From Candidatus Troglogloeales bacterium (lineage in GTDB: Bacteria; Nitrospirota; Nitrospiria; SBBL01): a DNA stretch of 33,603 bases. The number at the start of each line of letters is the position of its first letter. The stretch's first letter is position 1. Where the stretch lies: assembly GCA_005239745.1 (NCBI GenBank), contig SBBL01000018.1, positions 1-33,603 of the forward strand, in the 5' to 3' direction. Shown here piece by piece: positions 6,675-26,129 of the stretch. The notes beneath the pieces were generated by a model, which was not told the DNA's origin, did no database searches, and saw only the letters and a program-made list of their open reading frames with translations. A program made the position numbers and the translations under genes.

Positions 6675-7488
6675 TACGTATGATCCAAGGATGCCGTCTA
6701 TGGGGCAATTGTCACCCAAGCTCATTGCGATAGGGGTCGTTACACTGCTGGTTGTCGCTCTTGCCGCATCGTCTATAGCGATCGTCGGCCCTGGGGAGAG
6801 AGGTGTTGTTTTCAGTCAAATCAGTGGCATCCGGGATATCCTTCTGTCGGAAGGCCTTCACTTCAGGGTTCCATTTGTTGAGACGGTCATCCTCATTGAT
6901 GTAAAAGTTCAAAAGGTGCAGACGGAGGCGTCGGCATCGTCAAAAGACCTACAAGTGGTTGAGACGGCCGTTGCCGTCAACTTTCATGTAGACCCTGCAT
7001 CTGCGCAAAAGCTGTATCAAGAGGTGGGGCTCTCGTTCAAAGATCGGATCGTGGACCCTGCCATTCAAGAATCCGTGAAGGCCATTGCGGCGGGGTTTAC
7101 GGCGGAAGAGCTGATTACCCGCCGGGCCGAGGTAAAGAATAAAATAAAGGCCGATTTGGCAAAGCGGTTGATCGTCTTTAATTTGATTGTGGACGAGTTC
7201 TCGATCGTTAATTTTTCGTTTTCTCAGCAGTTTAATGCAGCAATTGAGGCCAAACAGGCGGCGGAGCAAGCCGCGTTAACGGCCAAGCGAGACCTGGAAC
7301 GAATCAAGATCGAAGCCGAACAGCGCATTACGCAGGCTGAGGCAGAGTCAAAGGCGCAGCAGCTCCAAAAAGAGACCCTCACCCCTATTCTGTTGCAGTT
7401 ACGGGCCATTGAAAAATGGGATGGGAAGCTGCCGCAGGTCTCCGGCGGAGCGACGCCTTTCATTAACGTGGATGCCATGAGCAAGTAA
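6667..7488 (+). CDS. SPFH/band-7 (prohibitin-like) membrane protein
   Basis: 273 aa. N-terminal TM helix, PHB/SPFH domain pattern, and a C-terminal Ala/Glu/Gln-rich coiled-coil region. Confidence 0.8.
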   Translation: MSNTYDPRMPSMGQLSPKLIAIGVVTLLVVALAASSIAIVGPGERGVVFSQISGIRDILLSEGLHFRVPFVETVILIDVKVQKVQTEASASSKDLQVVETAVAVNFHVDPASAQKLYQEVGLSFKDRIVDPAIQESVKAIAAGFTAEELITRRAEVKNKIKADLAKRLIVFNLIVDEFSIVNFSFSQQFNAAIEAKQAAEQAALTAKRDLERIKIEAEQRITQAEAESKAQQLQKETLTPILLQLRAIEKWDGKLPQVSGGATPFINVDAMSK

Positions 7489-7513
7489 CGTAAGGGCATG
7501 GCGAACAATTGGG

Positions 7514-7543
7514 TTGACAAGGGGAGAAGCAGCACGATACGAT
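7514..7543 (+). promoter_or_regulatory. candidate sigma70-type promoter upstream of the OFOR gene cluster (TTGACA-18 nt-TACGAT)
   Basis: Perfect -35 hexamer TTGACA at 7514-7519 and a TAcgAT -10-like hexamer at 7538-7543, inside a 146-bp intergenic region. Confidence 0.3.
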
Positions 7544-7634
7544 GATCGTGGTGGTGTGGTTGGTCCCATGAGCCACGATGGGATTTGGGTGTTGAGTATA
7601 GGTGGTTTGATCTAATTGGGGTTTTAGCGGTGAT

Positions 7635-8393
7635 ATGGTGATGATGAATAGAGGTGCTGTGTACGAGGTTTTGCCGGGGCCGGAGGGGATTCTTCCACCG
7701 GCTGCGACGGTGATGGGCGTTTGTTTACCGGAGGAAGGTGAAGGACTGTTGCATGGCAGGATCGTCTCAGAAGAAGAGGCGATGCGATCTGCGGCAATTG
7801 CCATGCTCACGCGCCGGAATCCAACACTCTTTCCAGGCCCTTTAATGCTTTGGGGGTGGACGGAACATACACGGGATAAGTCTGCCCCGTTCTTTGAAGT
7901 TGCCCGAGAGATACCGGGGGTGCGCATTATTCCCATGCCGGACTATCGTCCCATTTACCCAAAGATTGACCCGGAAGCGGTGATTAATCCGTGTCATCCC
8001 AACCTGACGATCTGGCACAATAAAATTGAAGCCTGCGTTCTCATCGGAGTGCATTGTCATTTTGCGAATGTTACCCTTAAAATTATTCGTGGGGGGACGA
8101 ATTGTTTTACGATTGCCCTATGTGCCGAAGCAGGCCACGAAGACGCCATGAGTTCGGTCCCGAATGTGGGGGCGGAAAAAATTGCTCGTTTTGCGGAAAT
8201 TTTGAGATTGGTTAAAAAAGAAGGCGTTAAGCCGCTTTATGCCGGGCAAGGAATTATCCCCTCCGGGTGGGCCCAAGTGGCAAGCTTGGGTGGATCTGCA
8301 GGAGGGCAAAACGGTGCTTTTGTGGACAATGGGCTCTCTCACCATGGGCTTTCCCATGATTTGGAACATGGTCTAGACGAGAACGAAGAGTAG
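7635..8393 (+). CDS. putative fifth (epsilon-like) subunit of a five-subunit 2-oxoacid:ferredoxin oxidoreductase; otherwise hypothetical
   Basis: 252-aa ORF directly upstream of, and co-oriented with, the alpha/beta/gamma/delta genes. The size (~27 kDa) matches the extra subunit of Hydrogenobacter-type For/Por enzymes. No recognisable motif; assigned by position only. Confidence 0.45.
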   Translation: MVMMNRGAVYEVLPGPEGILPPAATVMGVCLPEEGEGLLHGRIVSEEEAMRSAAIAMLTRRNPTLFPGPLMLWGWTEHTRDKSAPFFEVAREIPGVRIIPMPDYRPIYPKIDPEAVINPCHPNLTIWHNKIEACVLIGVHCHFANVTLKIIRGGTNCFTIALCAEAGHEDAMSSVPNVGAEKIARFAEILRLVKKEGVKPLYAGQGIIPSGWAQVASLGGSAGGQNGAFVDNGLSHHGLSHDLEHGLDENEE

Positions 8394-8438
8394 TGTGGGG
8401 GGGGAAAGGTCTAGGTAATTAAGAATAGTGAGGACACG

Positions 8439-9674
8439 ATGAGCGAGAGTGCGGTTATTGAGGAGGTAAAGACAAACCCACAGGGCGATGTCATCACGTC
8501 CGCTCCTCCTCCAAAGGCGGATGCTAAGAAGGGTGCCGCAAGTCAGCGTGTTGTTAGCCCGGATTATCTAATGTTGCAGGCCCCGCGTGAGGCTGTTTTT
8601 ATGACGGGGAGTGAGGCGGCCAAGGAAGCGATTCGTCGCGCCAATGTGGATATCGCCATTTCGTATCCGATTACCCCGCAGAGTGAGACGATGCAGCAGG
8701 TGGGGTACCTCTATGCGGAAGGGTATTTGAAGGACTATTACCGCGGGGAAGAAGAATATGGCGTGATGTCGGCGATTGCCGGGGCGTCTCGTGCGGGAGT
8801 ACGTTGTCTGACGGCGACGGCCGGCCCTGGGCTAATCCGCGGTATGGAAGTGATCGCGTCTTGGCCGGGGGGCAGGCTCCCGTCCATGCTGCTCATTATG
8901 TGCCGTGTGATCAACGCGCCTCTTGCCATTCAACCCGATAATGTTGAGCTTTCGTACATGCTCAATACGGGTGGCATCCTATTTCACGCAGAAAATCAGC
9001 AGGATTTCTACGATTATATATTGGCCGGTTTCATGATTGGTGAGAAGCCGGAGGTGACCTTGCCGGTGGCCGTGGCAGTAGACGGGTTCTTCGTCACGCA
9101 TGCGCGCGGATGGGTTTCGCTACCGTCGGCTGATATCAAGCTGCCACCCAGAGACTGTTACCATGAGGCGGTTCCCATGATGGATAATGAAAATCCGCCC
9201 ATTCGTATCTCCCGTGATGCGCCCATCCAGAAGTCCAATTTCATTTCCTATCACATGCACGCCTCGTGGCAACAGGAAGTTTGGGCTGCACAGGCCCGTG
9301 CGAACAAATGGGTTAAGCGCTGGATGGGCAGCCCAATCGAGGTGGTCAACCCAACGGCAAAGACAATAATTGTTGCATCTGGTGCGATGGTATCTCAGTC
9401 TCGAGAAGCGGTCAGGCAGGCAAGTGAGCAGGGGATAGAGGTCGGCCTGGTCAAAATTAAGTCTCTACGCCCATTTCCATCGCAGGAGCTTGTTGAAGCG
9501 GTTGATGGTGCCGATCGGATCATCGTTCCGGAGTTTAATTATGTCGGGTGGCTTGCTAAAGAGGTAAGGTCCGCCATTCCGCGTACGGAGCGGGTAATCT
9601 CTGGGCCTCGGGTTTTTGGCGGCATGACGATGCCGACGGAGCTGATTATGAGCTACGTCAAGGGCCGGCGGTAG
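8439..9674 (+). CDS. 2-oxoacid:ferredoxin oxidoreductase alpha subunit (pyruvate/2-oxoglutarate family)
   Basis: 411 aa. POR/KOR alpha domain pattern (AISYPITPQSE..., GASRAGVRCLTATAGPGL). GAGGA RBS 8 nt upstream. Confidence 0.85.
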   Translation: MSESAVIEEVKTNPQGDVITSAPPPKADAKKGAASQRVVSPDYLMLQAPREAVFMTGSEAAKEAIRRANVDIAISYPITPQSETMQQVGYLYAEGYLKDYYRGEEEYGVMSAIAGASRAGVRCLTATAGPGLIRGMEVIASWPGGRLPSMLLIMCRVINAPLAIQPDNVELSYMLNTGGILFHAENQQDFYDYILAGFMIGEKPEVTLPVAVAVDGFFVTHARGWVSLPSADIKLPPRDCYHEAVPMMDNENPPIRISRDAPIQKSNFISYHMHASWQQEVWAAQARANKWVKRWMGSPIEVVNPTAKTIIVASGAMVSQSREAVRQASEQGIEVGLVKIKSLRPFPSQELVEAVDGADRIIVPEFNYVGWLAKEVRSAIPRTERVISGPRVFGGMTMPTELIMSYVKGRR

Positions 9675-9721
9675 GTCGGCGCTTAAGTTTTTGAATCTGT
9701 TCCTCACAAGGAGGGGATGCA

Positions 9722-10609
9722 ATGTCACTAGAAACAATTCGTGTAGCTCCGGGGTTTAAAGAGTATTTGCCTCGAGAATATCAGGATTTAGTAGACGATG
9801 GTCCGTTTGGCAGAGAACGAAAGGTCTCTGAGGTTGGGTCATTTAAGGAGGCCGTAGAAGAACATCCCATGTGTGCCGGGTGTGCCATGACCCTCTTTAT
9901 TCGTACCGCCATCGTGGCGCTTCCGAGCTTAGAAAACACGGTGATCATCGGCACGGCAGGGTGTGGGCGATTGGTACTGTCTCAAACGGCCGTTCCGTTT
10001 ATCTACGGCAACTACGGGGATACCAATGCCGTTGCAAGCGGTCTGAAGCGGGGCCTAGCGATCCGCTTTAAGGACAAACCCAAAGATGTCGTTGTTATGG
10101 CAGGCGATGGGGGGCTTGCTGATATCGGTTTTTCGGCGGTCATGCACTCCTGGTTTAGGAAGGAAAGATTTACCACGGTCATGCTCGACAATGAAGTTTA
10201 TGGAAACACCGGTGGGCAAGAAAGTGGCATGACGCAGAGGGGGGCTATCTTAAAGATGGCACCGCTCGGTAAGAAGTTTGAAAAGATGGATATGATGGGG
10301 CTTGCCAAAACGGCAGGGGTCGCCTACATTGCCCGCGTAGTGCCGACAAACGCCACCCGTGTGGCAAACACCATACGGAAGGCCGTCCTGATCGCGAGAG
10401 AGGTGGGCCCCACGTATGTTCAGGCCTATACGTCTTGTAATATTGAATATGCGATTCCAACCCCTAAGGTGATGGATGATGCGCGTATGATTGAGCAGCA
10501 GAGGTATGGGTTTTCAGAATACTTTACCGATGAGGCCAAGTCCTATTGGGAGCACTACGAAAGAGAGCGTCGTCAAGTTAAGGGCCCAGACGGCGAATCA
10601 GAAGATTAG
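9722..10609 (+). CDS. 2-oxoacid:ferredoxin oxidoreductase beta subunit (thiamine-diphosphate binding)
   Basis: 295 aa. TPP-binding GDG motif (VVMAGDGGLADIGF), Cys-rich N-terminal region CAGCAM...GCG. Strong AGGAGGGG RBS. Confidence 0.9.
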   Translation: MSLETIRVAPGFKEYLPREYQDLVDDGPFGRERKVSEVGSFKEAVEEHPMCAGCAMTLFIRTAIVALPSLENTVIIGTAGCGRLVLSQTAVPFIYGNYGDTNAVASGLKRGLAIRFKDKPKDVVVMAGDGGLADIGFSAVMHSWFRKERFTTVMLDNEVYGNTGGQESGMTQRGAILKMAPLGKKFEKMDMMGLAKTAGVAYIARVVPTNATRVANTIRKAVLIAREVGPTYVQAYTSCNIEYAIPTPKVMDDARMIEQQRYGFSEYFTDEAKSYWEHYERERRQVKGPDGESED

Positions 10610-10752
10610 GGGCACCTCTAAAAACCGTCACGAGCGGCCAAAATGCAAGGCGCACGGAGCAGAGGAACCGGAATATATCTTTGAATATATGAGGATTCCG
10701 AGCACCGCGCAACGTAGCAGTTTGGACGCACAGTAGGTTTTTAGAGGTGCCC
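10610..10752. repeat. MITE/REP-like palindromic element, copy 1 (143 bp)
   Basis: Perfect 17-bp terminal inverted repeats GGGCACCTCTAAAAACC ... GGTTTTTAGAGGTGCCC. The internal core is shared with copy 2. Flanked by the direct 4-mer TTAG on both sides; the left TTAG contains the beta-subunit stop codon. Confidence 0.85.
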
Positions 10753-10889
10753 TTAGGCGTATCAAGCGTCTCATTGTTGACGAAGCACCGCGGGATCATT
10801 CGGGCAACCTTTAAGCTGGAATCCGGTAGCTTTTAAGTGTTTTTGTCGTGGGCGCGGCTGTGGCTGCGCTCTAGCAATAGGAGGGTAAA

Positions 10890-11609
10890 GTGGCTGGAAT
10901 AGTGTCGAGATACAATGTTCGGATGGCGGGAATCGGTGGGCAGGGCGTTGTGACCGCGTCGCACGTTCTGAGCAATGGCGTTATCATTGGAAAAGGACAA
11001 AGCACGCTGGTGCCGTTTTTCGGCTCTGAAAAGCGGATGGCGCCCGTGGAAAGTTATGTGCGTGTGGCAAACGTTCAGATCTATGAAATTGGCGAGATCA
11101 TCTACCCGAATGTCATTATGATCTTCCATCCGCAGGTGATTACGCACGGTAAGTCGTATACGATGCCGTTTTATTCGGGATTAAAAGAGGCTGGTGTCGT
11201 TCTCATCAATAGTGAGGAACCCGTGGCAATGGGTGAAGACCAAGAGCGAGAGCTGAGGTTAATGAAAGCGAAGGTTTGCTACCTTCCAGCCACTAAAATT
11301 GCGAACGAGGTCGGTGGGACGGACCTTGCGACCAATATGGCGATGGTCGGAGGGATAGCGGGGATTATTGGCATGCCGTCGCTTCCAGCCTTGAAGCAGT
11401 CGGTTCACGAGCGCTTTTTAGGGAAGGGGTTCGTTGTCTCCGGTGGAACGGCCTCTCTAGATAATGTCATTGAGAGAAAATTCGCTAAAAAAGCGGAGCT
11501 GGTAGAGAAAAACTTTGCCGTTGTGAAGGCGGCTTACGAGTATGTCATTGAACGGGGATGGGCTATTTCTGGAAAAGAGGCGGAAGTGCGTGAAGCGGTT
11601 GCTGCTTAG
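10890..11609 (+). CDS. 2-oxoacid:ferredoxin oxidoreductase gamma subunit
   Basis: 239 aa. POR-gamma signature YNVRMAGIGGQGVVTA near the N-terminus (cf. IRFxGRGGQG). GTG start with a GGAGGG RBS. Confidence 0.85.
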   Translation: MAGIVSRYNVRMAGIGGQGVVTASHVLSNGVIIGKGQSTLVPFFGSEKRMAPVESYVRVANVQIYEIGEIIYPNVIMIFHPQVITHGKSYTMPFYSGLKEAGVVLINSEEPVAMGEDQERELRLMKAKVCYLPATKIANEVGGTDLATNMAMVGGIAGIIGMPSLPALKQSVHERFLGKGFVVSGGTASLDNVIERKFAKKAELVEKNFAVVKAAYEYVIERGWAISGKEAEVREAVAA

Positions 11610-11632
11610 AATCTAAAAATTCGTGAGGGTCT

Positions 11633-11911
11633 ATGTACGCTGTTGCCGATATTGACGTTGATGTGTGCGGTTCCACAAAGTGTAGGCTCTGTACGCAGTT
11701 TTGCCCGGAGTCCAATACCATTCAGTTCGATAACGCACGGAACTCGGCCTACGTATCGGTGGACCGGTGCAAGGGATGCGAGATTTGCGTTGGAGTTTGC
11801 GACGATCTTGCCAAGCACCACGCGATTAAGATGGTTCCGATTAACGAAGTCCAAAGCGGCTTTGAGCTTCGGCTTGTCGGTTTCAAACAGTCTATTGCCG
11901 GTCTCCATTAA
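11633..11911 (+). CDS. 2-oxoacid:ferredoxin oxidoreductase delta subunit (ferredoxin-like, two Cys clusters)
   Basis: 92 aa with two 4Fe-4S-type cysteine motifs (CGSTKCRLCTQFCP and CKGCEICVGVC). Located directly after the gamma gene. Confidence 0.8.
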   Translation: MYAVADIDVDVCGSTKCRLCTQFCPESNTIQFDNARNSAYVSVDRCKGCEICVGVCDDLAKHHAIKMVPINEVQSGFELRLVGFKQSIAGLH

Positions 11912-11916
11912 CGATA

Positions 11917-12102
11917 GTGAAGTGTCCTGCCTGTGGGCACGAAAATGACCCCTTCCTCCCTTGGTGTGTTAAGTGCCTGAGGGAGTTCCCCTCGTCCCTT
12001 CCTCGTGTCCGTGTCTGCCCGGAGTGTCACGCCCAGAATGATGCGGATGCCTATCACTGCGAGGTCTGCCATGAGCCGCTTCGCCCGGGCCAGTCGGAGT
12101 GA
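11917..12102 (+). CDS. small double zinc-ribbon protein (hypothetical)
   Basis: 61 aa with four Cys pairs (CPACGH, CVKC, CPEC, CEVC). Starts 5 nt after the delta-subunit stop. Confidence 0.45.
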   Translation: MKCPACGHENDPFLPWCVKCLREFPSSLPRVRVCPECHAQNDADAYHCEVCHEPLRPGQSE

Positions 12103-12170
12103 CGGGGGGAATTGTCATTACGTACTGCACAACATCCACGTACCAACTTGTGGGGAATGGTAAGGGGTTA

Positions 12171-12192
12171 GAAGGGTTCCCCCTTTGTTTTA
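12171..12192 (+). terminator. weak intrinsic-terminator-like hairpin after the OFOR cluster/zinc-ribbon ORF
   Basis: GAAGGG-TTCC-CCCTTt stem-loop followed by TGTTTTA. Short stem, so low confidence. Confidence 0.25.
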
Positions 12193-13524
12193 CCCGCGAA
12201 TAGGGGAAGGCGTGGTCCCCGCGAAATAGGCCTTCGCCTCTCCAATGGTATATAACGATCCCGTAATAGTCAGCGTATCGTTAGGTTGCATGTTGTGCAC
12301 CGCGTAGGCAATAGCCTCAGGGACGGTTTTGTGGGGCGTCTGGCGCACCGGTGTGCCCACCCTGGATGCAGTCACAGATTTAAGAGATGCCAGTATGTCA
12401 GCAGGAGAGGCAGCGCGTGGGATGTTTGGAGCAGTCACAATGATCTCATGCGCCCATGTCAGTAGGTAAGACAACATATCGGCGATCCGCTTATCCTTCA
12501 TTATGCCGACAATCGCCAAGCGTTTGTGGCGAGGGTCAGGCGTTATCTGATGTAGGGCGTTGACCAGTGCCTGCACGCCTGCAGGGTTGTGTGCACCATC
12601 CAGAATAATCCGCGGCCTCTCGTGCACCGTTTCAAAGCGTCCGGCGCACGTTGCACCCGCAATCCCTTTAAGAATGACTTCGTGAGAAAGTTTCACCCCC
12701 AACTGCTGTAGACACTCGATGATACCCAGGGCAACGCCGGCGTTTTGCACCTGGTGCGGACCCGCCAGTGAGCAGTGAATGGCGTGCACGTTCCCCTGCA
12801 GACCGATATAAACAAAGTGCTCCGGGTTGTCTCCCATGACACGGATCTCATGCCCCAGGCGGATTAAGGGCGCACCTTTTTCGTGCGCGATCCCTTCAAA
12901 GATTGCCAAGACTTCCTCCTGTCCCACTGCCGTGACAACGGGGACCCCTTTTTTAATGATCCCTGCCTTTTCTTTAGCGATCGCCTCAATCGTCTCTCCA
13001 AGATACTGCTCGTGATCAAGGGCGATTGTAGTAATGGCTGCCACTAAAGGAAGAACCAGATTCGTGGCATCGAACCGTCCCCCCATTCCTACTTCCAAGA
13101 CGGCATAATCTAAACGCTGTTCGGAAAAGTAGAGAAAGGCAAGGGCGGTTGTAAATTCAAAAAATGTAATGGGTGGAGTAAACGGGAGCGCCTTGACGCA
13201 ATCACGTATGATAGAGGTCAATCGGATCATTTCAGGCGCCGGGATTGGCGTCCCGTTGATACGTATGCGTTCCGAGAAATCAATCAGGTGGGGTGATGTG
13301 TAAAGGCCGGTCCGGTACCCACCCCGTGTCAGAACGGATGCCACCATGGCAGCAGTTGAGCCTTTCCCATTGGTACCTGCGATATGGATGGAGGGGAACG
13401 TCCGCTCGGGATGGCAAAGCCTGTCCATAAGTGCCTCCATCCGAGCCAGGGTAGGCACAATCCCATGCCCCTGCAAACGGAACAGGTAATCCAGTGCCTC
13501 CGTTACCTGCGGCGTAGTTCCCAA
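12190..13524 (-). CDS. folC: bifunctional folylpolyglutamate synthase / dihydrofolate synthase
   Basis: 444 aa Mur-ligase family protein. P-loop AGTNGKGST and FolC-like central and C-terminal domains. Confidence 0.85.
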   Translation of the reverse strand: MGTTPQVTEALDYLFRLQGHGIVPTLARMEALMDRLCHPERTFPSIHIAGTNGKGSTAAMVASVLTRGGYRTGLYTSPHLIDFSERIRINGTPIPAPEMIRLTSIIRDCVKALPFTPPITFFEFTTALAFLYFSEQRLDYAVLEVGMGGRFDATNLVLPLVAAITTIALDHEQYLGETIEAIAKEKAGIIKKGVPVVTAVGQEEVLAIFEGIAHEKGAPLIRLGHEIRVMGDNPEHFVYIGLQGNVHAIHCSLAGPHQVQNAGVALGIIECLQQLGVKLSHEVILKGIAGATCAGRFETVHERPRIILDGAHNPAGVQALVNALHQITPDPRHKRLAIVGIMKDKRIADMLSYLLTWAHEIIVTAPNIPRAASPADILASLKSVTASRVGTPVRQTPHKTVPEAIAYAVHNMQPNDTLTITGSLYTIGEAKAYFAGTTPSPIRG

Positions 13525-13677: not shown

Positions 13678-15243
13678 ATGGCACAGACCGTGCTGGGGTT
13701 AGATATCGGTCAGGACACCGTTCGTGGCGTGCGTATCGGGCAGGGCCTGCGGGGTCTGCGCGTGCTGGATATATTCGAGCAGGAGGTGCCCAAGGAAGAG
13801 GTTGCCTCCGGTCTGCTCTGCCATGGGCAGATGGAGGCACTTAAACAATTAATTTCAGACGGAAAAATTAGGCCAAATGAGCGGATTACCGTTGCCCTAC
13901 CCGGTCAGTTTGTCTCTTTCCGGACATTGGTACTTCCCTTTACGGACACCCGGAAGATCGAACAGGTTGTGCCATCGGAGCTGGAAGCGCATCTACCGTT
14001 TGATTTGGAAGAAGTGATTGTTGACTCTTTTCTCACGCAATCGAATAAAGACGTGCAAACGTCTCACGTCTTAGCCGTTGCCGTCCAGAAAACCGTTCTA
14101 AAGCAATATTTAGACGCCCTACAAGAACTTGGGCTCAACCCTTCCGTGGTTGGGTTAGATACCCTTGCGCTTTATTTGGCCTATACGTCCGGCCATGCCG
14201 AGCAACACATCGCGCACGGCGCCGCTCTTCTAATTGATATAGGGGCGTCTAAAACGGTTCTAGCCGTTATCGCCCAGGGTCACCTACGATCCGTTCGAAC
14301 CCTCTTGATGGGTGGTGATGACATAACCGCCACCCTCCAGCATGTCCGCCGGTTGTCGTGGGAAGAGGCAGAAATAGTAAAGATGCGAAGCACGCTTGAT
14401 CCTATGGAGGCAGATGACGATGGCGTGGAGGTTGCCACGTGCATAAAAGAGGCACTCACCCCGTGGCTACGTGAGATAGAAAAAAGCTGTATGGATGTTT
14501 CTGCCTTCTACCTGTGCGGGGGGGGAAGCCTCTTAAAAGGATTGAGTGATTATATTGCACAGGCACTGCAACTGTCTCCTATATCCTGGCAGTCCGAGAT
14601 TCAGGGCATCAACCGACAGGCCGTACCCACTTACATGCAGGGGCTTGGGCTTGCCCTATCTGTCACACAACCGGAGAGGGAGTTAAACTTACGACAAGGC
14701 ACCTTTCTTCTTCATCAGTCCTCTAGTCAGAAGCAGAGACAGCTCCTCGCAATGGGATTTGGCGTTTTGGTGGTTGTGAGCCTGTTGGTGGCCGGGGTTT
14801 ATCTTCGTCATCAACAGGTGCAGCAACGTTATAAATCATTGAAAGAGACGCTTCATGCAGGCTTTGTCCGTCTGTTACCGAATGCACCCCGGGCGTCTAC
14901 GTCAGAGATTGAACAAGTGGAAGCGATCATTCGGACCACGGAACAAACTCATGAATGGCTGGAGATTAACCGGGAGAGTCCGCTGGCTACGCTCCGCGCA
15001 TTGACGATGGCCATACCGCCCGAAGTTCCCATTGATGTTCACGAATTTTCTGTAGATGGGAACAAGGTGCGTGTTGCGGCTACAACCCGTTCCTATGACA
15101 TGGTAGACCAAATACGCGGCGGTCTGTTGGGGGTTCCTCACTTCCAGGATGTGAATGTTAGTGGCGCAAAGACCTCTCCCGGTTCCTCAAGTGTGGAATT
15201 TGATATTCAGTTTTCGGTTGGGCCGTTACAGGATTTACGGTAA
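13678..15243 (+). CDS. type II secretion/pseudopilus assembly protein, GspL-like (PilM-like actin-fold cytoplasmic domain + TM + PilN-like periplasmic domain)
   Basis: N-terminus MAQTVLGLDIGQDTVRGV (actin-like ATPase fold start), a single TM segment (LLAMGFGVLVVVSLLVAGVYL) about 370 aa in, and a periplasmic C-terminal domain. Start placed at the internal Met; the ORF track starts 72 nt earlier. Confidence 0.65.
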   Translation: MAQTVLGLDIGQDTVRGVRIGQGLRGLRVLDIFEQEVPKEEVASGLLCHGQMEALKQLISDGKIRPNERITVALPGQFVSFRTLVLPFTDTRKIEQVVPSELEAHLPFDLEEVIVDSFLTQSNKDVQTSHVLAVAVQKTVLKQYLDALQELGLNPSVVGLDTLALYLAYTSGHAEQHIAHGAALLIDIGASKTVLAVIAQGHLRSVRTLLMGGDDITATLQHVRRLSWEEAEIVKMRSTLDPMEADDDGVEVATCIKEALTPWLREIEKSCMDVSAFYLCGGGSLLKGLSDYIAQALQLSPISWQSEIQGINRQAVPTYMQGLGLALSVTQPERELNLRQGTFLLHQSSSQKQRQLLAMGFGVLVVVSLLVAGVYLRHQQVQQRYKSLKETLHAGFVRLLPNAPRASTSEIEQVEAIIRTTEQTHEWLEINRESPLATLRALTMAIPPEVPIDVHEFSVDGNKVRVAATTRSYDMVDQIRGGLLGVPHFQDVNVSGAKTSPGSSSVEFDIQFSVGPLQDLR

Positions 15244-15386
15244 GGGCACCTCTAAAAACCGTCGCGAGTGGCCCAAATGCAAGGGCTACTGCGCACAGGA
15301 ACCGGAGTATATCTTTGAATATATGAGGATTCCGAGCACAGCAGCTCGCAGCAGTCGGGTCACGCAGCAGGTTTTTAGAGGTGCCC
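15244..15386. repeat. MITE/REP-like palindromic element, copy 2 (143 bp)
   Basis: Same 17-bp TIRs and shared core (…CCGGAGTATATCTTTGAATATATGAGGATTCCGAGCAC…) as copy 1. Flanked by the direct 4-mer GTAA on both sides; the left GTAA contains the stop codon of the GspL-like gene. Confidence 0.85.
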
Positions 15387-15404
15387 GTAACTAGGTTTAA
15401 CGCA

Positions 15405-15947
15405 ATGAGTGGAATTAACCGTATGGCTTTTCTTTCTTCCCGTGAGAGAGGAGTTCTGGCTGCGGGAGTCTTGTTACTTTTTGTGATTGTTGGCTATGTC
15501 TTTTGGCTTGGCCCCATACGTGAAGATACCACGCGACTGACGCGCCTAATCCCCAAGAAGGAGAAAGATATCCGGGCCTTTGCTGTGTTGCGGGACCGCT
15601 ATCTGGTGTTGCGGGGTGATGTGGATGCGGTAGAGCGGCAATTCCCGCCCAAGGAGTTCTCTTTGCTGTCGTTCCTAGAAGAAAATGCTAATAGGAACAA
15701 CATAGGAGGGAATGTGACTTACATCCGTCCACTGACCCCCGAGACGCATGAGCCGTACCGCAACAACAAAGTTGAGGTGAAGATAGCCAATGTCCATCTG
15801 GTGGATATGGTCTCCTTTCTCGGCACCATTGAACGCATGCCTTATTCGCTGCGGATTGGGAGCCTTTCAATCAGGACGCATCGCTCCGATCCATCTCTGA
15901 TGGATGCCACCTTCGTTATATCATCGTACCAAAGAGATCTCTTCTGA
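15405..15947 (+). CDS. type II secretion system protein M-like (GspM/PilO-like)
   Basis: About 180 aa with one N-terminal TM helix (VLAAGVLLLFVIVGYVFWLG), positioned between the GspL-like and GspK genes. The ORF-track GTG start at 15381 lies inside the repeat element, so the first ATG after the element is used. Confidence 0.55.
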   Translation: MSGINRMAFLSSRERGVLAAGVLLLFVIVGYVFWLGPIREDTTRLTRLIPKKEKDIRAFAVLRDRYLVLRGDVDAVERQFPPKEFSLLSFLEENANRNNIGGNVTYIRPLTPETHEPYRNNKVEVKIANVHLVDMVSFLGTIERMPYSLRIGSLSIRTHRSDPSLMDATFVISSYQRDLF

Positions 15948-16859: not shown

Positions 16860-16873
16860 GGCGTCTTCGTTTA

Positions 16874-17059
16874 GGGCACCTCTAAAAACCTACTGCGCAG
16901 CCCAATTGCTGCCCACCCCAAAACATTCAAACATTGTTTGGGGGGGGGGCGGTGCGTTGCGTGGTGCTTAAGAATCCGCATGTATACTGCATACATTGCG
17001 GTTCCTGCGCGCAGTAGCCCTTGCACTTGGGCCGCTCGCTACGGTTTTTAGAGGCGCCC
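16874..17059. repeat. MITE/REP-like palindromic element, copy 3 (186 bp, inverted orientation, expanded core)
   Basis: Terminal repeats GGGCACCTCTAAAAACC ... GGTTTTTAGAGGCGCCC (one mismatch). The reverse complement aligns with copy 2 through ...GGGCTACTGCGCxCAGGAACCG.... The core is replaced by a different palindrome (CGCATGTATACTGCATACATTGCG) and contains a G10 homopolymer at 16940-16949. Confidence 0.8.
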
Positions 17060-17269
17060 TTGACATAGATTGCCTCCGTCTCTGTCTTAAGAAAACTACC
17101 GTCGGTGTACACAGCAGGCCAGGGCCTTTGCCTTCCCGCAAGCGGGTATGCTACGCTACCCCGCTTCTAAGGTTGTCATTCCGGCATGCTTTTTGCCGAT
17201 ATGGCGCCTGTGTGGTGGGCGTCAATACTGAATCGTACGTATTAACCTATCTTAGAAGAAGGAGATGTT

Positions 17270-17500: not shown

Positions 17501-17807
17501 CCACCGAGTTGAAATCTGCGGGCAGCAATATACCCTGCGTGGAGAGGCCGACTCTGCCTATATACAGGGACTTGCGGCCTTCGTTGAACAGAAGGTCAAG
17601 GAGGTCTCTTCTCTTCCCGGTGAACATTCATTCAAAACTGCTATCCTGGCCGCGATCAATATTACAGACGAGCTCTTCCAGTTGAGACGGCAGCAGAAGC
17701 AATCGAAAGATAGTATTGATCGCCGTACCCGGGATATCATCGAGCAAATTGAAGAGCAGTTTGAGACGGAGGCGGGAATGAGTTTGGGCGGCGTAGCTCA
17801 GGGGTAG
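17490..17807 (+). CDS. zapA: cell division protein ZapA
   Basis: ZapA-like N-terminus (VEICGQQYTLRGEADSAYIQGLAAFVEQKVKEV) and a coiled-coil C-terminus. Start chosen at TTG 17490 with an AGGAG RBS 7 nt upstream; the ORF track uses GTG 17463. The frame has no stop until 17805-17807, which lies inside the tRNA. Confidence 0.6.
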   Translation: MQSSHRVEICGQQYTLRGEADSAYIQGLAAFVEQKVKEVSSLPGEHSFKTAILAAINITDELFQLRRQQKQSKDSIDRRTRDIIEQIEEQFETEAGMSLGGVAQG

Positions 17808-17858
17808 AGCAGGTGAATCATAATCACTCGGCCGGGGGTTCAAATCCCTCCGCCGCTA
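17787..17858 (+). tRNA. tRNA with CAU anticodon (tRNA-Met elongator or tRNA-Ile2/lysidine type; not initiator)
   Basis: Cloverleaf fits: acceptor GGCGGCG/CGCCGCU (G1-U72), D-arm GCTC-AGGGGTA-GAGC, anticodon arm GGTGA-AUCAUAA-TCACT (anticodon CAT), variable loop CGGCC, T-arm GGGGG-TTCAAAT-CCCTC, discriminator A. It lacks the three G-C pairs at the base of the anticodon stem that initiator tRNAs carry. Confidence 0.8.
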
Positions 17859-25323: not shown

Positions 25324-25907
25324 TCCATCCCTTTTTGAACATTTCGCCAAAGTATCCGCCAAGCGTTTTTATTGCACCGTCGGCACGGGTGATTGGAGAC
25401 GTGGTGATTGGCGCGGAAAGTTCCATCTGGTTTGGGGCAGTGGTACGGGGTGATGTCCACTACATTCGGATTGGGGATCGCACCAATATTCAGGATTTGT
25501 CTATTTTACACGTGACGCGTATCACACATCCGCTGGTGATCGGGTCCGACGTGACTGTCGGTCATCACGTGACGTTACATGGTTGTACCATCGCCGATCG
25601 TGTACTGGTGGGAATGGGCGCCGTCGTCCTCGATGGGGCGGTTGTCGGGGAGGGTTCAATGATTGGGGCAATGGCGCTTGTAACGGAGAGAATGCAGGTG
25701 CCCCCCGGCGTGTTGGTTCTTGGGGTCCCGGCGCGGGTCAAGCGTTTACTGACGCCGGAAGAAACGGCGTTCCTTTTGCAATCGGCGCAAAACTACGTAC
25801 AGTTGAAATCGCATTACATGAGCGAAAGCAGCATGCCCCCAAGCCCTATGTCGGATACGTCTCCAAATGCCCCCGTAGCTCAGGCGGATAGAGCAACGGT
25901 TTCCTAA
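25320..25907 (+). CDS. gamma-class carbonic anhydrase family / hexapeptide-repeat protein (YrdA/PaaY-like)
   Basis: Left-handed beta-helix hexapeptide repeats with conserved His residues (ILHVTRITHPL, GHHVTLHGCTI). ATGA overlap with ldcA. Confidence 0.8.
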   Translation: MIHPFLNISPKYPPSVFIAPSARVIGDVVIGAESSIWFGAVVRGDVHYIRIGDRTNIQDLSILHVTRITHPLVIGSDVTVGHHVTLHGCTIADRVLVGMGAVVLDGAVVGEGSMIGAMALVTERMQVPPGVLVLGVPARVKRLLTPEETAFLLQSAQNYVQLKSHYMSESSMPPSPMSDTSPNAPVAQADRATVS

Positions 25908-26129
25908 ACCGTGTGCCGGGTGTTCGAGTCACCCCGGGGGCACCCCTAATAAATGATGGAGACTTTATTTATCCTAGACGGGTAGCCTCTTCTATTAGCA
26001 TGACGGGGATACCGCTTCGGATCGGGTAGGCCAGTTTACATGTCGCACAACTCAAGGCTTCCGGCCCGTATGCTTGAACGGTCCCCTTGCATTTTGGGCA
26101 GGCCAATAGGTTAAGGAGTGTCTGGTCAA

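Follow-up and report, generated by a model that had tools for sequence, protein, structure and literature searches.

Positions 1-33,603 of contig SBBL01000018.1 from Candidatus Troglogloeales bacterium (assembly GCA_005239745.1), the 33.6-kb stretch of DNA that we call the window, carry a five-gene 2-oxoacid:ferredoxin oxidoreductase (OFOR) cluster in the order epsilon, alpha, beta, gamma and delta, and the locus raises the question of why beta and gamma should stand so far apart within it. In the list of open reading frames (ORFs) the successive intergenic gaps measure 45, 47, 280 and 23 nucleotides (nt). An earlier note on this DNA had put the beta-gamma gap at 280 nt, which is correct, the last position of beta being 10609 and gamma starting with the GTG at 10890 (gap 10610-10889); its range of 5-47 nt for the other gaps has to give way to the three values above. 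The same note ascribed the wide spacing to a palindromic element; the 143-nt element and one 4-bp duplication make up 147 nt of it, with 133 nt left over. Our analysis identifies the element, at a probability of about 95%, as a non-autonomous MITE (a miniature transposable element with inverted repeats) of the IS5 family (IS5 group) of insertion sequences (ISs), a 143-nt non-coding derivative.

The element (copy 1) occupies 10610-10752 on the plus strand and was delineated from the sequence and a repeat search. It is bounded by 17-nt terminal inverted repeats, GGGCACCTCTAAAAACC on the left (10610-10626) and GGTTTTTAGAGGTGCCC on the right (10736-10752), both given on the plus strand, which match each other perfectly (17/17) and enclose a plus-strand non-coding fold-back core (10627-10735) whose arms pair over their full length around a central AT-rich hairpin. 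Directly outside the repeats the sequence reads TTAG on both sides, a target-site duplication whose left member (10606-10609) includes the beta stop codon (TAG, 10607-10609) and whose right member lies at 10753-10756. The terminal 17-mer occurs six times in the window at no more than one mismatch, against a chance expectation of 0.13 matches even at up to three mismatches; the palindromic element in the beta-gamma gap is not a chance product. The only entries of the ORF list that cross copy 1 are spurious, and domain scans of the window proteins detected no transposase gene or domain across the 33.6 kb.

Two further copies lie downstream of the OFOR cluster. Copy 2 (15240-15390 including flanks, element 15244-15386, plus strand) is 84% identical to copy 1, has perfect terminal repeats (17/17) and sits between GTAA duplications at 15240-15243 and 15387-15390, the left of which includes the TAA stop codon of a gspL-like gene; a second insertion between the gspL-like and gspM-like genes, as previously proposed, is thereby confirmed. 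Copy 3 (16870-17063 including flanks, element 16874-17059) has the opposite orientation, on the minus strand, and lies 14 nt past the stop codon of a gspK-like gene, where the run of gsp genes ends. Its repeats agree at 16 of 17 positions (one mismatch in one repeat) and its flanks are imperfect (TTTA/TTGA, 3/4). It also carries a nested G-rich hairpin of about 45 nt, CCCACCCCAAAACATTCAAACATTGTTTGGGGGGGGGGCGG (16911-16952), with a run of ten Gs, which is found neither in copies 1 and 2 nor in a Troglogloeales element (L010); an expansion or the insertion of a second, very small palindrome may have produced it.

We then compared the cluster with its orthologs, a check that the earlier note had itself suggested, and found the element missing from all four of the related OFOR clusters examined (L117, L119, L122 and L123). 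Three of these share the epsilon-alpha-beta-gamma-delta order and have beta-gamma gaps of 27 nt (L117), 15 nt (L119) and 68 nt (L123). The fourth (L122 4914-5348, JGI 3300045502) has a DUF29 gene between beta and gamma; given this gene and the MITE in the window, the beta-gamma junction has accepted insertions more than once. In an empty-site allele GAAGATTAG, on the beta side, would be joined directly to GCGTATCAAG, on the spacer side. Two Logan assemblies of other sequencing runs contain one end of the insertion each: a contig from SRR6261451 (L001) holds beta and the first 28 nt of copy 1, and one from SRR6943129 (L131) begins 27 nt before the right end of copy 1 and continues through the spacer, gamma and delta at 100% identity. 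Both end inside copy 1, as is to be expected of short-read assembly at a dispersed repeat. A further contig that stops right after beta (L118) was considered as an instance of the element and rejected as an ordinary contig end. The target duplications, the absence from four relatives and the termini shared with IS5 elements (see below) uphold the view that this is an inserted, repeated element, and support its reading as an insertion and not as a native feature of the OFOR cluster.

The termini point to the family to which the element belongs. A scan with the terminal 17-mer against one genome per species matched more than 115 loci (L002-L116), where about 70 chance matches would be expected in DNA of that size by our own estimate. 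The matches are not randomly distributed, however. Among the matches listed, the 17-mer has AT-rich tetranucleotide flanks and is in many cases placed at a contig end, and for most of them a second, inverted copy lies 50-290 nt away; the hosts include Campylobacterota, Bacteroidota, Clostridia, Spirochaetota, Nitrospirota, Nitrospinota, Proteobacteria and others. At four loci (L014, L051, L077 and L082) the two repeats are instead separated by 1.25-1.33 kb, with a coding sequence for a protein of about 350 amino acids between them. The two of these proteins that were scanned, from L014 and from L082 (Nitrospira sp. RBC003), match Pfam DDE_Tnp_1 (8e-24) and DUF772 (2e-23), and that of L082 scores 275 bits against the NCBIfam model NF033581 'IS5 family transposase' (cut-off 140). 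A tblastn search of plasmids returned thousands of annotated IS5-family transposases, and in the best-matching annotated IS, which is carried by a Pseudosulfitobacter plasmid, GGGCACCTCGAAAAATT is found 60 nt upstream of the transposase gene. In its exact form the 17-nt terminus is common to IS5 elements and to MITEs of 50-290 nt with unrelated interiors in at least eight bacterial phyla, making it an unusually widely conserved transposon end.

Across all fetched loci, 31 of the 61 repeat-bounded elements have identical 4-bp flanks, compared with 4.2% when flanks are paired at random between elements and with 0-2 elements when the offset is shifted; TTAA is the commonest of the targets, which are rich in A and T. 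A duplication of 4 bp together with a single-ORF element of about 1.2-1.3 kb is the signature of the IS5 group within the IS5 family, and a preference for YTAR targets is attributed to IS5 itself or to the IS5 group; the TTAG target of copy 1 fits this pattern. Related MITE copies were recovered from Troglogloeales, Nitrospirales, Nitrospinota and Paraherbaspirillum loci. A metagenome scan with a pattern specific to the sub-family gave three loci, too few for statistics on copy number or orientation. On a 4.7-Mb contig (WLWD01000007.1; L125 4190-4420), tandem and truncated termini are clustered together with MITE arms of both the window type and the Nitrospirales type, which suggests nested insertions or recombination between sub-families. 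It is on the strength of the IS5-shared termini, the 4-bp duplications and the want of a transposase gene in the window that we classify copy 1 as a non-autonomous MITE.

Folded as RNA with a few flanking bases, copy 1 is predicted to form a single long imperfect hairpin of -70 kcal/mol (z = -7.85; 0/200 shuffles), the full-length fold-back amounting to about -65 to -70 kcal/mol with a perfect basal duplex of 20 bp. The hairpin proposed in the earlier note for the messenger of the cluster is upheld as a prediction, as far as the strong fold and the pairing of the 17-bp repeats are concerned, and is conditional on co-transcription of the genes. The latter is probable, given the shared strand, the tight spacing (15-27 nt) of related clusters and the outcome of a scan of 7400-12300, in which terminators with loops of 3-8 nt were sought and which gave neither a sigma-70-like promoter nor a terminator within 10610-10889. 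Three sequence features of the termini may be recorded here. The right repeat reads as RNA UAGAGGUG, a near-perfect Shine-Dalgarno sequence, in all copies; the left repeat reads CACCUCU, resembling the anti-Shine-Dalgarno of 16S rRNA; and the inner hairpin is bounded by A5 and U5 runs in a terminator-like layout. These resemblances probably arise by coincidence from the sequence that the transposase binds.

We aligned the window copies with 141-142-nt elements from Troglogloeales (L010) and from a metagenome contig (L124), plus Nitrospirales and Nitrospinota loci (L025, L049, L053, L057, L091, L097 and L098). The aligned MITEs share one consensus hairpin, with standard pairs in 97.6% of the sequence-by-pair cells and changes on both sides in 15 of the 46 consensus pairs; in slid controls 34-49% of cells were paired and at most six pairs showed both-sided changes. 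The observed values were reached by 0-1 of 500 shuffles for four of the five measures and by 10 of 500 for the remaining one (further pair types), figures that represent no formal probability, as the sequences are related and a single change can be inherited by many copies. Copies 1 and 2 by themselves already differ at three pairs (columns 43/101, 44/100 and 47/97) in which both partners have changed in a compensatory way. The alignment makes a clear case that compensatory changes have kept the fold-back across sub-families. The ends of the full-length ISs are complementary over only about 17 nt; accordingly, inheritance of the fold-back from long inverted IS ends was rejected, and the pairing over the whole length is a property of the MITE lineage and not of the parental element. 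It may reflect a requirement of mobilization, a fold-back origin or selection on RNA. In a test of G-U versus A-C asymmetry, both strands of the window copies fold equally well (-65.2/-70.8 and -75.1/-75.9 kcal/mol), which does not speak for selection at the level of the sense transcript.

Several observations weigh against the reading of copy 1 as an IS5-group MITE that was inserted into the cluster as a passenger. The GTAA target of copy 2 and many other targets fall outside YTAR, and the three full-length, transposase-encoding ISs counted among the 61 elements (L014, L051 and L082) are all without a matching 4-bp flank. No IS5 partner with these termini was found in the 33.6 kb available from the source genome, the partners having been seen in other genomes. 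The closest OFOR clusters are just 82-84% identical in beta and may include paralogs, and an empty site in the same species was not found, the insertion being present in both other samples. Finally, the co-varying pairing over the full length implies a constraint on the hairpin for which a view of the element as mere 'junk' does not account.

The likeliest of the alternatives, along the lines of the earlier note, is that the hairpin has been domesticated as an attenuator, RNase site or stabilizer of the operon, setting the ratio of epsilon/alpha/beta to gamma/delta. The predicted hairpin is very stable and its perfect 20-bp basal duplex suffices for RNase III; compensatory changes maintain a fold-back that was not derived from the IS ends; two of the three copies are within operons, exactly on stop codons; and the Correia and ERIC elements furnish precedents (PMC10969869, PMC2649163). 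However, the related OFOR clusters all lack the element, so that the enzyme works without it, and the same element is also present at unrelated loci. As the covariation is between sub-families of different phyla, it is a property of the element and not of the operon; selection on the sense transcript is not indicated, as the two strands fold equally well; and, as all five subunits are needed together, a strong uncoupling would be harmful. We accordingly regard domestication as unlikely.

A second alternative is that the inner hairpin, with the U5 of the right repeat, ends the transcript after beta, and that gamma and delta are expressed from a promoter in the spacer. The A5-CC-hairpin-GG-U5 layout does resemble a bidirectional intrinsic terminator, with -34.5 kcal/mol for the inner hairpin and U5 in copy 1 and -44.4 kcal/mol in copy 2; copy 3 closes the gsp gene run, the 133-nt spacer is unusually long, and terminator-like MITEs have a precedent in the SPRITE elements (PMC10969869). 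Against this, the inner stem has a weak base that is broken up into 2 bp, a 3-nt loop, a further 2 bp and so forth, and the full hairpin is followed by CCCUUAGG and not by a U-tract. The scan described above recovered no terminator in the gap and no sigma-70-like promoter in the spacer, and by the same logic copy 2 would sever gspM from gspL with no visible promoter to compensate. A transcript split of this kind is very unlikely.

The repetitive palindromes of the REP/BIME type are intergenic, lie inside operons, and stabilize upstream mRNA or attenuate transcription; individual REPs are 20-40 nt long, have no terminal repeats and are linked to RAYT transposases. To our knowledge REPs produce no target duplications. 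The element might be thought to be such a palindrome, moved by an IS200/IS605-like RAYT transposase, or else a structured RNA that is native to the OFOR cluster, as it is intergenic, palindromic and multi-copy. Its length of 143 nt far exceeds that of REPs, its IS5-identical terminal repeats and 4-bp target duplications contradict this reading, and there are orthologous clusters without the element and no Rfam match; this makes both options highly improbable. An assembly artefact, with contigs misjoined at the repeat, can be dismissed almost entirely: the contig does pass three copies of a repeat at which short-read assemblies break, but the expected gene order is preserved across copies 1 and 2 (beta|gamma and gspL|gspM), both of these have exact 4-bp duplications, and both junctions of copy 1 recur in independent assemblies of two other runs.

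Returning to copy 1 as an IS5-group MITE, its origin may be reconstructed as follows. An IS5-group transposase acting in trans would have recognized the 17-nt termini (GGGCACCTCTAAAAACC) and cut out or copied the element, which would then have been inserted at a short AT-rich 4-bp target that was duplicated in the process, the target of copy 1 being the TTAG on the beta stop codon. As the duplication would have kept the beta stop codon and left the reading frames intact, the insertion could be tolerated and persist. Similar events would have placed copy 2 on the gspL-like stop codon and copy 3 just past the gspK-like gene. Provided that the five OFOR genes form one transcript, as is probable, the mRNA would carry an imperfect hairpin of roughly 65 bp, whose 20-bp basal duplex starts in the beta stop codon. 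Any close translational coupling from beta to gamma would have been lost, if it existed; the long RNA duplex would be open to cleavage of the RNase III type or might shield the upstream segment at its 3' end; and translation of gamma would have to rely on the strong Shine-Dalgarno sequence of that gene, 130 nt downstream.

We think it likely that the element is a selfish passenger with incidental effects at the RNA level and not a built-in regulator. Going by the Correia and ERIC elements, a role as an attenuator, processing site or stabilizer is plausible, and the uncoupling of gamma/delta from alpha/beta envisaged in the earlier note may be considered on the same analogy. That selection keeps the fold-back for its use to the host, for example as an operon-internal module of the RNase III or the insulator kind by which the ratio of epsilon-alpha-beta to gamma-delta is set, or as a device that brings stop and start codons close enough for translational coupling to outlast the insertion (copy 2), seems to us distinctly unlikely; were it so, MITE termini resembling Shine-Dalgarno and anti-Shine-Dalgarno sequences would constitute a widespread, portable post-transcriptional device across phyla.

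Among the known systems, IS5-derived MITEs have been described in Porphyromonas gingivalis, with ends like those of ISPg1/3/4/9, and in Neisseria, where the ATR element has the ends of ISNme1 (PMC4596501). Like IS5-family MITEs in general, the present element is small, non-coding, multi-copy and intergenic, with termini identical to those of a transposase-encoding element and a 4-bp AT-rich duplication. It differs from the P. gingivalis and Neisseria MITEs in its terminus, GGGCACCTCTAAAAACC as against GAGACCTTTGCA, in folding back over its full length where those have only short terminal repeats, and in its host, a member of the Nitrospirota (Troglogloeales/Manganitrophaceae-like). We found no MITE described from this Nitrospirota lineage: a literature search for the terminus string came back empty, and PMC9040806 makes no mention of transposons.

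A similar genomic setting is that of Chunjie of Geobacter uraniireducens (Chen et al. 2008, Genetics 179:2291, as summarized in PMC10969869), a MITE of 178-235 bp placed inside an operon. It shares with our element terminal and direct repeats, a stable structure and a position between operon genes with no gene broken. The two are taken to be unrelated in sequence, and recent mobility is documented for Chunjie only. Correia elements, for their part, have 26-bp repeats, a TA duplication, an IHF site and promoter-forming ends. In contrast, the MITE studied here has other termini and a 4-bp duplication, no promoter-like site was found in it, and no conserved IHF-like motif is visible by eye in the MITE alignment. 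In Neisseria, Correia elements (CREE/NEMIS) are co-transcribed with their neighbors, and the duplex of their terminal repeats can be cut or bound by RNase III, with changes in transcript levels (PMC2649163, PMC10969869); this would be the best functional analogy for a possible effect of our element. The ERIC/IRU elements of enterobacteria are imperfect palindromes of about 127 nt, transcribed and intergenic, and in Yersinia the unmasking of an RNase E site in them can alter mRNA decay (PMC10969869). Our element resembles ERIC in being an intergenic imperfect palindrome paired over its whole length; it has no sequence relation to ERIC and, unlike the latter, for which no transposase partner is established, shows a clear link to IS5. 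From REP/BIME palindromes it is set apart by its 143 nt, terminal repeats and 4-bp duplication.

IS5-derived MITEs, MITEs inside operons and fully palindromic MITEs are all known already; new, in the sense of not having been met in the literature searched, are this terminus and this MITE lineage in Troglogloeales/Manganitrophaceae-like bacteria. The insertions explain both the odd gap in a core carbon-fixation operon (147 of its 280 nt) and a gap among type II secretion genes, and account for the breaks of short-read assemblies of this organism at these sites. The locus also furnishes a test case for whether a hairpin of about -65 kcal/mol placed on a stop codon in the operon of a five-subunit enzyme shifts the balance of the subunits; should there be no shift, it would provide a measure of how much structured insertion an essential operon tolerates. 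The setting, the operon of a key reverse tricarboxylic acid cycle enzyme, and the conservation of the fold-back make this a reasonable test case, albeit one that will not surprise specialists.

The residual part of the gap, a 133-nt spacer outside the MITE (10757-10889, plus strand), is identical in the second Logan contig (L131) and is two to nine times as long as the beta-gamma gaps of relatives (15-68 nt). It is unrelated to the MITE copies, the Smith-Waterman score against all of them being 22 compared with 20 ± 2.6 for shuffled sequence, and shares just chance words of 12-14 nt with all fetched loci. At its downstream end is the gamma Shine-Dalgarno sequence, GGAGG at 10880-10884, five nt upstream of the gamma GTG, and some 10 nt upstream of this ribosome-binding site a 7-bp hairpin, GCGCGGC-UGUG-GCUGCGC, spans approximately 10853-10870. 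A sigma-54-like GG-N10-GC noticed by eye at 10862-10875 was rejected, as it would place the transcript start about 3 nt before the GTG, with loss of the Shine-Dalgarno sequence. At the Rfam gathering thresholds the only matches across the window are two tRNAs, with none to the element or spacer. The best hit of a permissive local search, that of sX9, a small RNA of Xanthomonas, to 10611-10690 on the minus strand (20.4 bits versus a threshold of 44; E = 0.15) was treated as chance; sX9 may overlap an IS5-type repeat in Xanthomonas.

The analysis of copy 2 also corrects the likely start of the gspM-like gene. The GTG at 15381, previously held to be its sole candidate start, falls within the right repeat of copy 2, and two in-frame ATGs, at 15405 and 15423, sit outside the element. 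None of the three candidates has a good ribosome-binding site. The aligned GspM of Manganitrophus first matches the window protein near the residues that come just after the ATG at 15405, and with copy 2 removed the gspL stop codon would lie 14 nt from this ATG, a normal coupled arrangement. Ca. Manganitrophus has no element at this junction, and in both of the genomes compared the end of gspL runs 23 nt into gspM (L127 5185-5207 and L128 5167-5189).

The OFOR cluster itself extends over 7635-11911 on the plus strand, its genes being assigned from the ORF list and Pfam: epsilon, which is CO_dh-like (7635-8393), alpha (8439-9674), beta, the thiamine pyrophosphate-binding subunit (9722-10609; TPP_enzyme_C, 8.6e-18), gamma (10890-11609; POR, 3e-30) and delta (11633-11911), all on that strand. 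The GTG at 10890 is in line with the gamma N-termini of relatives. Beta shows 82-84% identity with the corresponding proteins of Candidatus Manganitrophaceae and other Nitrospirota and the GspL-like protein about 41% identity with Ca. Manganitrophus proteins, and by these identities the host is a divergent member of that group. A beta-like protein of 442 amino acids (P0001) that scored above the self-hit was considered as a read-through into the element and rejected. It is an OFOR beta from an ENA contig (L130 2174-3502) in which about 150 residues are duplicated internally, probably an assembly artefact. The two tRNA genes of the window (Rfam RF00005) lie at 17787-17858 (65 bits), about 730 nt downstream of copy 3, and at 25869-25942 (63 bits).

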